A stretch of 64,000 bases of DNA from Escherichia coli (GTDB taxonomy: Bacteria; Pseudomonadota; Gammaproteobacteria; Enterobacterales; Enterobacteriaceae): assembly GCF_045037415.1 (NCBI RefSeq), contig NZ_CP173438.1; one strand, 5' to 3'. Of the stretch, positions 60,700 through 61,686 are shown piece after piece. Position 1 is the stretch's first letter; every line of letters begins with the position of its first letter. The notes under the pieces were generated by a model. It made no database searches. It had not been told where the DNA came from and saw only the letters and a program-made list of their open reading frames with translations. Position numbers and translations under genes: made by a program.

Positions 60700-61686
60700 T
60701 CAGGAGAAAACTTCGATACCTTGCTTGCGCATGGAGGCCAGCCGATAGCGCAGTGCGCGCGGGGTAATGCCTAACAGGTCGGCGATTTTGCTGCGGTTGC
60801 CCTGATATTTACGCATCAGGTCGGCGATATATTGATACTGCGCACTTCGTCCGTGCTGGCCTAAATCGCGGGTTTCGGCAATGTGGACGGCGGGCTGAAC
60901 AGGCCATTGCAGTTCGCTGTGGTCGGCAATGTCAGTTTCCGGCAGGCCTAAGGCATCCGGGTAAATCACGCCGTCGCGGTTTAAGATCATTCCTCTCTGA
61001 ATGGCGTTTTCCAGTTGGCGAACATTTCCGGGCCAGCGGTAATTAAGTAGCGCCCGGCGTGTGGATTCGGACAGGGTGATATTTTTCACCAGCACCGTGG
61101 CATATTTTTTAATAAACGACTCTGCCAGCGGAATAATATCGTTCAGACGTTCACGCAGTGGCGGCATGGTTATAGGAATAACCGCCAGACGATAATAAAG
61201 ATCTTCACGAAAACGTCCAGCAGCCACGTCCTGTTCCAGATTTTTATTGGTGCAGGCAATCAGGCGAAAATTGAGTTTGATTTGTCTATTGCTGCCTAAT
61301 CGCTCAACCTGCTGTTCCTGCAATACGCGTAATATTTTGGCCTGTAATGCCAGCGGCATATCGCCAATTTCATCGAGCAATAAGGTGCCGTTATTAGCCA
61401 GTTCCATTTTTCCTGGCACGCTGGCAATTGCGCCGGTAAATGCGCCTTTGTCGTAGCCAAATAAGGTCGCTTCCAGCATATTTTCCGGGATCGCCGCACA
61501 GTTCACGCCGATATAGGGCGCGTTATCATTTTCACCAAAGGCTACGGTGTGAATATATTTCGCCACGCACTCTTTCCCCGCGCCGGTTTCGCCCTGAATG
61601 AGCACCGGTACGTTAAAGGCGGCGACACGCTTTGCCAGAGTAAAAGCGTTAATGCTGGAAGCGGCAGTTGCAATAAGTTCAGACAT
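60700..61686 (-). CDS. lafK: Sigma-54-dependent transcriptional activator (AAA+ and HTH domains, no receiver domain)
   Basis: Walker A GETGAGKE, GAFTGA motif, Walker B LLLDEIGDM, C-terminal HTH; AAA+ domain starts about residue 30. Confidence 0.85.
   Translation of the reverse strand: MSELIATAASSINAFTLAKRVAAFNVPVLIQGETGAGKECVAKYIHTVAFGENDNAPYIGVNCAAIPENMLEATLFGYDKGAFTGAIASVPGKMELANNGTLLLDEIGDMPLALQAKILRVLQEQQVERLGSNRQIKLNFRLIACTNKNLEQDVAAGRFREDLYYRLAVIPITMPPLRERLNDIIPLAESFIKKYATVLVKNITLSESTRRALLNYRWPGNVRQLENAIQRGMILNRDGVIYPDALGLPETDIADHSELQWPVQPAVHIAETRDLGQHGRSAQYQYIADLMRKYQGNRSKIADLLGITPRALRYRLASMRKQGIEVFS

Follow-up and report, generated by a model that had tools for sequence, protein, structure and literature searches.

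How is a sigma-54-dependent activator controlled when it carries no receiver domain? The question is raised by a gene on the minus strand at positions 60700-61686 of a 64,000-nt stretch of an Escherichia coli genome (RefSeq assembly GCF_045037415.1, contig NZ_CP173438.1), referred to here in its whole length as the window. The gene is, with near certainty, lafK of the E. coli Flag-2 (lateral-type) flagellar cluster, in a form without a receiver. An initial annotation, made from the sequence, had described the product as the sigma-54 activator of a lateral-type flagellar cluster, lacking a receiver domain and for that reason probably constitutively active and regulated by amount rather than by phosphorylation. 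Taken as a whole, the locus is best explained by a Flag-2 cascade driven by LafK, with LafK set by its amount, and we put the probability of this reading at roughly 0.6.

The coding sequence starts with an ATG at 61686 and runs as an uninterrupted open reading frame (ORF) of 328 amino acids plus a stop, the length given in the initial annotation. Pfam places the sigma-54 interaction (AAA+) domain at residues 6-172 (61171-61671; this and the following features are on the minus strand), with PF00158 Sigma54_activat matched at E = 1.2e-63 over profile positions 3-167 of 168 and with 214 bits against a cut-off of 20.2. The domain begins at about residue 4-6, not near residue 30 as first stated; residues 32-39 (61570-61593) are the Walker A motif GETGAGKE, in which G32, G35, G37, K38 and E39 are invariant in an alignment of LafK with other activators that includes distant relatives (alignment A1). 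The GAFTGA loop, the sigma-54 contact motif, occupies residues 81-86 (61429-61446), with five of its six residues invariant in the same alignment and F83 kept in 9 of 10 sequences, and Walker B (LLLDE) lies at residues 102-106 (61369-61383), with L103, L104, D105 and E106 invariant and L102 again kept in 9 of 10. The AAA+ lid follows at residues 178-246 (60949-61155; PF25601 AAA_lid_14, E = 3.3e-20) with the sensor II region, made up of PLRER (residues 176-180) and WPGNVRQLEN. Like both Walker motifs and GAFTGA, sensor II and the arginine fingers (R160 and R166) are conserved. A Fis-type helix-turn-helix (HTH) closes the protein at residues 284-317 (60736-60837; PF02954 HTH_8, E = 7.5e-9). LafK is thus built solely from the sigma-54 interaction (AAA+) domain, the lid, a variable linker and the Fis-type HTH, and against NCBIfam it gave only sub-threshold matches, to the central and C-terminal parts of many activator families (for example FlbD profile positions 120-445 and NtrC 135-377).

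No match of LafK to Response_reg (PF00072), FleQ (PF06490), GAF, PAS or V4R was found with Pfam. Upstream of the ATG the frame is closed by a TAA 24 codons away, with no ATG, GTG or TTG in between, and the 386-bp gap between lafK and lfiM holds no minus-strand ORF of at least 50 amino acids upstream of lafK. When the receivers of Vibrio campbellii LafK and Aeromonas caviae FlrC were used as tblastn queries for a receiver remnant, the best match in the 64-kb window had E = 1.9, none of the weak matches (E >= 1.9) lay near lafK, and nothing better than E = 1.9 was obtained in the 10 kb on each side of lafK in Citrobacter, Pantoea, Budvicia and Hafnia. Annotation, Pfam searches of nine uncharacterised or regulatory products and the receiver tblastn likewise showed no receiver or histidine kinase encoded in the Flag-2 cluster. 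Because no receiver is present in lafK or elsewhere in the cluster, control of LafK by phosphorylation through a domain of its own is excluded. The receiver-less architecture claimed at the outset is thus upheld by the domain search, the tblastn and the upstream stop; the in-frame extension encoding a receiver that the initial annotation had named as the finding to look for does not exist.

Could the short length nevertheless be an artefact, the gene being a 5'-truncated or frameshifted response-regulator activator or one with a mis-called start? Vibrio LafK, with 444 amino acids, does have an N-terminal receiver-like domain, and a few database proteins at 62-73% identity carry PF00072. Against this stand the in-frame stop with no alternative start, the lack of a receiver remnant in any frame, the identical N-terminus of Citrobacter LafK and the receiver-less state of every enteric genus examined, and we regard an artefact as extremely improbable. 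The receiver-bearing relatives themselves were rejected as LafK proteins. P0051, P0069, P0118 and P0079 are chimeras on metagenome contigs of 2-5 kb, in which the N-terminal part of E. coli NtrC, TyrR or some other regulator runs into LafK at motifs conserved among bacterial enhancer-binding proteins (bEBPs). The junctions lie at motifs such as FREDLYYRL, PPLRER and WPGNVR, and the added part is a receiver or an ACT domain. Such "LafK with receiver or ACT domain" proteins are a trap for automated surveys of domain architecture.

At identities between 98% and 57%, homologues measure 324-365 amino acids, share the same three domains and carry no receiver, and in this range the assembly chimeras are the sole receiver-bearing near relatives. 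The orthologues in Enterobacterales span 324-348 amino acids. The receiver-less homologues include those of Citrobacter, Leminorella, Atlantibacter, Pseudescherichia, Scandinavium, Siccibacter, Budvicia, Hafnia, Pantoea, Pragia, Regiella and Pluralibacter. In a search among 50% representatives, most near relatives are 440-480 amino acids long and have a receiver.

The assignment as the sigma-54 activator of a lateral-type flagellar cluster is borne out by Pfam and by synteny. The lfiMNPQR-lfhBA genes run divergently from lafK on the plus strand from 62073, and lfiEFGHIJ follow on the minus strand, with the lfiE start 14 bp past the lafK stop. This is the arrangement of Flag-2 cluster 1, with the order lfhAB-lfiRQPNM-lafK-lfiEFGHIJ, in E. 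coli 042, a cluster that has been surveyed across Enterobacterales and whose activator, CAH19120.1, carries the name LafK (PMC6993521). The 042 protein (Ren et al. 2005; CAH19120.1) is the product of the same gene, in the same position between lfiM and lfiE and with the same 328 amino acids. The order in which lfhA to lfiM diverge from lafK-lfiEFGHIJ was found in E. coli, Citrobacter, Pantoea, Budvicia and Hafnia. The remainder of Flag-2 (lfgN-L, lafW, lafZ and lafA-U) occupies about 26-57 kb of the window. Compared with E. coli database entries the protein is 95-100% identical and nothing of substance differs. In a genome identical over a 1701-bp query spanning lafK, RefSeq lists it as WP_001292199.1, "sigma-54 interaction domain-containing protein", and the same 1701-bp region is present at a coverage of at least 80% in 1277 of 5426 complete E. 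coli genomes. LafK has been grouped with PspF and HrpR/S as an activator without a signal domain (Francke 2011; PMC3162934). Both the literature and RefSeq already cover the gene, its name and its missing signal domain, and lafK is in that sense an ordinary known gene. One database entry, P0009 (E. coli ECZU08_24880, 446 amino acids), has a frameshift near the 3' end that fuses lafK to lfiE, with loss of the C-terminal HTH helix.

What LafK would act on was approached by scanning the window for sigma-54 promoters with TGGCACG-N4-TTGCW at no more than one mismatch. The three matches are TGGCACGGCGATTGCT upstream of lfgB (46784-46799, minus strand; 12/12 to consensus), TGGCACGCCTTTTGCC upstream of the fliD homologue lafB (32410-32425, minus strand; 11/12) and CGGCACGCTTATTGCA (48445-48460, plus strand; 11/12), the promoter of an operon of a 310-aa gene and a GT2 gene. 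All three lie directly upstream of Flag-2 operons and point into them, and each is preceded by a dyad of the form CGGAAA-N5-TTTCCG(CCTG). The candidate LafK enhancer at lfgB is GGAAATAAAACTTCCGCCTG (46846-46870, minus strand), 47 nt upstream of the GGCACG core, that at lafB is GGAAACGTCATTTCCGCCTG (32461-32480, minus strand), 36 nt upstream of the core, and the third, GGAAACGGATTTTCCGCCTG, stands with its promoter at 48390-48460 (plus strand) before the cargo operon of variable region 1. The end of TTCCGCCTG and the GGCACG core are separated by 36 nt at lafB and at the cargo operon and by 47 nt at lfgB, spacings that differ by one helical turn.

One genome per prokaryotic species was scanned with GGAAA-N5-YTTCC-N38-56-GGCACG-N4-TTGC, which gave at least 123 exact matches at a minimum of 120 loci. 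Among the matches listed, 56 of 123 immediately precede lfgB/C, lafB or a homologue of the 310-aa gene; about twenty enteric genera contribute to these 56, as do V. harveyi, V. rotiferianus, V. diabolicus and Vibrio sp. AND4. The module length is 83 nt in 24 of the 31 lfgB-type cases listed and 69-70 nt in 18 of the 20 enteric lafB and cargo cases listed, while the remaining listed matches are scattered over unrelated phyla and show no favoured length. Before lfgB/C the module was seen in at least about 30 other species, and Pantoea has the same promoter and dyad before lfgB. The 70-nt lafB form is also present in Citrobacter, Pseudocitrobacter, Escherichia whittamii, Cedecea, Lelliottia and others, and in Vibrio of the Harveyi clade a dyad and sigma-54 promoter stand before the lateral fliD (lafB) operon as they do in E. 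coli. The cargo module is kept before homologues of the 310-aa gene in at least seven other genomes, and was found there in Pseudocitrobacter, Citrobacter, Escherichia whittamii and Escherichia spp.

On this evidence LafK likely activates the three sigma-54 promoters, and the dyad CGGAAA-N5-TTTCCG is probably its binding site, with a specificity that, judged by the shared motif, would be common to enteric and Vibrio LafK. The cargo operon (48390-51912) encodes a 310-aa protein without a Pfam match and an 812-aa GT2 glycosyltransferase; it is a probable flagellar glycosylation operon and would be under LafK. Further dyad matches at 51989-52013 (a repetitive extragenic palindromic, or REP, element), at 42543-42567 inside lfgG and at 61261-61280 inside lafK have no promoter at the right distance and were set aside. 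A search for sigma-28 promoters with TAAAG-N14-GCCGATAA at up to three mismatches returned 38 scattered matches and nothing interpretable before lafA.

The control region of lafK itself looks different. The lafK-lfiM intergenic region measures 386 bp in E. coli (61687-62072) and 386-641 bp across E. coli, Citrobacter, Pantoea, Budvicia and Hafnia, and in none of the five was a sigma-54 promoter of 10/12 or better found upstream of lafK or lfiM. Two weak sigma-54-like sites in the E. coli gap were rejected: TGGTATGGGCGTTTCT scores 9/12 and is without the -12 GC, and CGGCACGCAATTGCCG lies inside a REP element. The consensus scan instead gave a sigma-70-like promoter candidate for lafK, TTGCTA-18 nt-AATAAT, at 61780-61809 (minus strand), in an AT-rich block that is conserved between E. 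coli and Citrobacter; a 12-bp palindrome, TGTTTATAAACA (61785-61796), sits in its spacer. As read directly from the sequence, a REP pair (bacterial interspersed mosaic element, BIME) occupies 61812-61895, and its inclusion in the 1701-bp query accounts for the median of 27 matching places of that query per E. coli genome.

This layout fits a hierarchy in which, by analogy with other lateral systems, lafK and the export and switch genes would be class I, LafK with sigma-54 would turn on class II and LafS (sigma-28) would serve flagellin. Such a scheme of class I genes, LafK plus sigma-54 at class II and sigma-28 has been described for Aeromonas and Vibrio. In Aeromonas, lafK is reported to be a class I gene that depends on sigma-70; in V. 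parahaemolyticus, LafK acts as the sigma-54 regulator of the lateral flagellar genes of class II; and in both, lateral class II transcription requires LafK (PMC4481668). As to the claim that LafK is regulated by amount and not by phosphorylation, the part concerning phosphorylation of its own receiver is settled by the absence of one. The part concerning amount is consistent with the lack of a sigma-54 promoter at lafK, the sigma-70-like site and the report on Aeromonas; it is the simplest reading, a plausible one, and it fits the promoter layout.

In the cascade that we favour, lafK would be transcribed first in the lafK-lfiEFGHIJ operon, from a promoter that does not depend on sigma-54, and the amount of LafK would be set by whatever controls that promoter; candidates are LafZ, nucleoid proteins on the AT-rich block, and other factors. 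LafK dimers would then bind CGGAAA-N5-TTTCCG at 36-47 nt upstream of the GGCACG core of the three sigma-54 promoters, and the bound protein would assemble into an ATPase ring and open the sigma-54 holoenzyme complexes. The targets would be lfgB-L (rod and hook), lafBCDEF-lafS-lafTU (cap, the sigma-28 factor LafS, and stator) and the glycosyltransferase operon, after which LafS would turn on flagellin. LafK would self-assemble without a receiver, and output would follow its concentration. LafZ, encoded at 35623-36465 (plus strand), is a ToxR/CadC-like protein of 280 amino acids whose N-terminal part forms an OmpR-type winged helix (residues 25-97) and which has no receiver; it may act as a regulator upstream of lafK.

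Several points weigh against this reading. The number of sigma-54 matches in the window (3, against 1.16 expected) is reached by 9 of 100 shuffles; since the count alone is not significant, the promoter argument rests on placement and conservation. The sigma-70-like promoter candidate of lafK matches the consensus at 9 of 12 positions, and the sequence before the E. coli lafK ATG has no Shine-Dalgarno sequence. The function of E. coli LafK is drawn from its sequence and from analogy with other activators. Strain 042 is considered to have an inactive Flag-2, and K-12 has lost the locus by deletion (PMC6993521). A further objection comes from FleR of Pseudomonas aeruginosa, which is 47% identical to LafK and is likewise encoded directly upstream of fliE. 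A FleR construct of the AAA+ and DNA-binding domains (residues 129-473) fails to restore flagella or the expression of flgB and flgF, has a modest ATPase activity, 3.3-fold above that of the unphosphorylated protein, without reaching the active oligomer, and the FleR receiver is needed for stability of the heptamer (PMC10696123). In our alignment LafK residue 5 faces FleR residue 131 and the LafK start is equivalent to FleR residue 127, which means that the inactive construct begins almost exactly where LafK begins. Because this engineered receiver-less FleR is inactive, a missing receiver is not proof of constitutive activity in the subfamily, and since the truncation is non-functional, self-sufficiency of the LafK AAA+ domain must have been acquired, as is assumed here. 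Of the initial claim that LafK is constitutively active, the receiver-less basis therefore stands, but the activity itself is not secure given that FleR(129-473) is inactive in vivo. On the side of constitutive activity, the FlrC AAA+ domain alone forms heptamers (PMC6504787), and Budvicia and Pragia are motile although Flag-2 is their only flagellar system (PMC6993521). The LafK of both genera is receiver-less.

Sigma-54 activators can also be held in check by other means. PspA gates PspF, HrpV gates HrpS and FleN gates FleQ, and cyclic di-GMP (c-di-GMP) binds the AAA+ domain of FleQ, FlrA and FlrC. LafK might accordingly be made and then gated post-translationally in trans, by an anti-activator or by c-di-GMP, the missing receiver reflecting a different input. 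Such gating would suit the grouping of LafK with the PspF and HrpS class (PMC3162934), whose other well-studied members are controlled in trans, and the failure of receiver-less FleR to be self-sufficient (PMC10696123). In V. parahaemolyticus, moreover, the degenerate EAL protein LafV represses genes of the surface regulon when LafK is present (PMC9303241). FlrC, the closest solved relative, is reported to be disassembled by c-di-GMP (PMC10333796), which also tells against control by amount in that it makes ligand control of the LafK AAA+ domain possible. The closest structure is that of the V. cholerae FlrC AAA+ domain (4QHS; E = 3.6e-75, 256 bits), which outscores NtrC1, FleQ (218 bits), FlrA and PspF (184 bits).

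The cluster and the LafK residues speak the other way. Annotation and Pfam on the nine products showed no PspA-, HrpV- or FleN-like gene and no PilZ, GGDEF or EAL gene in the Flag-2 cluster, although five of the Flag-2 hypothetical proteins have no Pfam match and a sixth has weak sub-threshold matches, the search for a partner was not exhaustive and a regulator could lie elsewhere. The FleQ residues that we take to contact c-di-GMP are not matched in LafK either: the arginine of LFRS faces no LafK residue, the whole segment being absent, and the Arg-Asn after Walker A is replaced by Lys43-Tyr44. PspF and HrpR/HrpS (type Ic of Francke) resemble LafK in having AAA+ and HTH only, in about 325 amino acids with the AAA+ domain at the N-terminus, and LafK residues 4-235 align with PspF chain residues 8-239. 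PspF is nevertheless not close to LafK in score (184 bits against 256 for FlrC), and no counterpart of the PspA and HrpV partners was found among the Flag-2 products. Nor does LafK belong with the FleQ/FlrA type, which has an N-terminal FleQ domain (PF06490) that LafK does not match and of which FleQ scores 218 bits against 256 for FlrC. We consider gating in trans less likely than the cascade set by amount. That the amount of LafK is the main determinant of its activity, without any post-translational control, is a stricter proposition than the cascade with LafK set by its amount, and it is held tentatively, at somewhat less than an even chance.

Other lateral-flagellar activators show how the receiver-less form may have arisen. 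The comparison, which the initial annotation had proposed, showed that enteric LafK is receiver-less and that V. campbellii LafK keeps a pseudo-receiver. The V. campbellii protein came from a mis-filed chromosome II record (L006, 6635-7969); an A. caviae match tried as LafK proved to be the polar FlrC. As in E. coli, the V. campbellii gene lies directly upstream of fliE and diverges from the lateral fliM operon; the order there is the fliM operon and then, divergently, motY-lafK-fliE-fliF-fliG-fliH-fliI, with motY before lafK as a Vibrio feature. Its product has 444 amino acids and is 47% identical over the whole E. coli protein. Its N-terminus is a pseudo-receiver that covers the full length of PF00072 with 22 bits against a cut-off of 30.2, with the acidic pair, the phospho-acceptor Asp, the Thr and the Lys all replaced, whereas E. 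coli LafK is without the whole domain. Since Vibrio LafK keeps this pseudo-receiver, the statement that LafK has no signal domain (PMC3162934) fits enteric LafK exactly and Vibrio LafK only in the sense of a degenerate receiver. FlrC and FleR resemble LafK in having flgB-type rod and hook operons as targets, but differ in having a partner kinase and a receiver that functions, the latter matching PF00072 with 102 bits in A. caviae FlrC; LafK is without a kinase.

By sequence similarity alone, enteric LafK is no nearer to Vibrio LafK than to FleR or FlrC (47% to each of V. campbellii LafK and FleR). In a neighbour-joining tree of the AAA+ region, enteric LafK forms one clade (bootstrap 100) whose sister is a LafK-like protein of Pseudomonas fragi (P0136, 468 amino acids; bootstrap 78), and the link between the enteric and Vibrio LafK clades has a bootstrap below 50%. 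Shared synteny and the shared enhancer module argue for their orthology. The P. fragi gene (L135, 665-2071) also lies directly upstream of fliE, and its product has a receiver remnant of 15 bits. Response_reg scores fall from about 100 bits in FlrC through 63 in P0139, 30 in Thaumasiovibrio (P0147) and 22 in V. campbellii to 15 in P. fragi, with none in Enterobacterales.

This series may record a stepwise dismantling of a two-component activator, from a FleR/FlrC-like ancestor to the receiver-less enteric form, with the same dyad and promoters kept, though we hold this view with less than even confidence. If it is right, the enteric AAA+ domain gained a receiver-independent self-assembly that engineered receiver-less FleR lacks, and a comparison of LafK with that FleR would pinpoint which residues render a bEBP ring self-sufficient. 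In unrelated lineages, the receiver-less FlrC-like genes that lie upstream of fliE would then have taken the same path independently. Their products, from Steroidobacteraceae, Pseudomonadales and other metagenome-assembled genomes (MAGs), are scattered among receiver-bearing proteins in the tree, which suggests that the receiver was lost repeatedly. These short representatives were placed by genomic context, their names being uninformative. Three of the loci (L003, L004 and L005) are polar-type clusters with a receiver-less FleR/FlrC-like activator directly upstream of fliE. In the Pseudomonadales MAG (L004, 3772-7400) the activator follows a 251-aa HisKA/HATPase kinase, and L003 (4663-7370) and L005 (5312-7413) each have two tandem sigma-54 activators with no receiver or FleQ domain recorded.

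Is lafK in use at all, or is it a silent relic of a cryptic flagellar system, intact by chance or through recent ancestry and idle today? Flag-2 is deleted in most E. coli, the locus being present in the 1277 of 5426 complete genomes noted above, and its reported inactivation in strain 042 (PMC6993521) points the same way. Relative to Citrobacter, the E. coli 5' leader is short of about 125 nt immediately ahead of the lafK ATG, where, as said, the Shine-Dalgarno sequence is also missing. The window further holds an insertion sequence, IS1397 (IS3 family), at 32610-33958, which separates the 3' end of lafA from the enhancer and promoter of lafB and lies beside a REP remnant. This is the only visible disruption of Flag-2 in the window, and it leaves the lafB dyad (32461-32480) and sigma-54 promoter (32410-32425) intact. 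Other observations run counter to a relic: all catalytic motifs of LafK are intact, the promoters and dyads are intact and conserved, and the Flag-2 genes of the identical annotated genome are all called intact.

Selection also speaks against an idle gene. Within E. coli, lafK alleles differ at a proportion of synonymous sites (pS) of 0.22-0.24 and of nonsynonymous sites (pN) of 0.009-0.013, a pN/pS of about 0.05 over a synonymous divergence of 22-24%, and between E. coli and Citrobacter pS is 0.74 and pN 0.107; synonymous substitution rates are saturated between genera, for which reason pN and pS only are given. lafK is under strong purifying selection. The amino-acid differences among E. coli alleles, including those between this strain and the others, cluster mainly in the linker at residues 251-273. 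We therefore judge a relic improbable, and the cascade driven by LafK remains the preferred account. The divergence of 22-24% was measured between the window and two records (L012 and L013) filed as plasmids in PLSDB, of 404 kb and 101 kb. It is much deeper than would be expected for core genes of E. coli, suggesting that the allelic lineages are old or were imported from other clades of Escherichia.

Little is at stake in the identification as such, as lafK, its name and its missing signal domain were already known, the contribution of the analysis being one of context. That context is of modest interest, and where function is concerned it rests on inference. The Vibrio prototype keeps a decayed pseudo-receiver where enteric LafK has none, with a graded decay among LafK-like proteins, and enteric LafK starts at about the same boundary as an inactive engineered truncation of FleR, which bears on what makes an enhancer-binding ATPase self-assembling. 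The conserved dyad and sigma-54 promoter module marks the likely LafK regulon, a flagellar glycosyltransferase operon included. These points provide a handle for asking whether expression of lafK alone switches on Flag-2 in E. coli.

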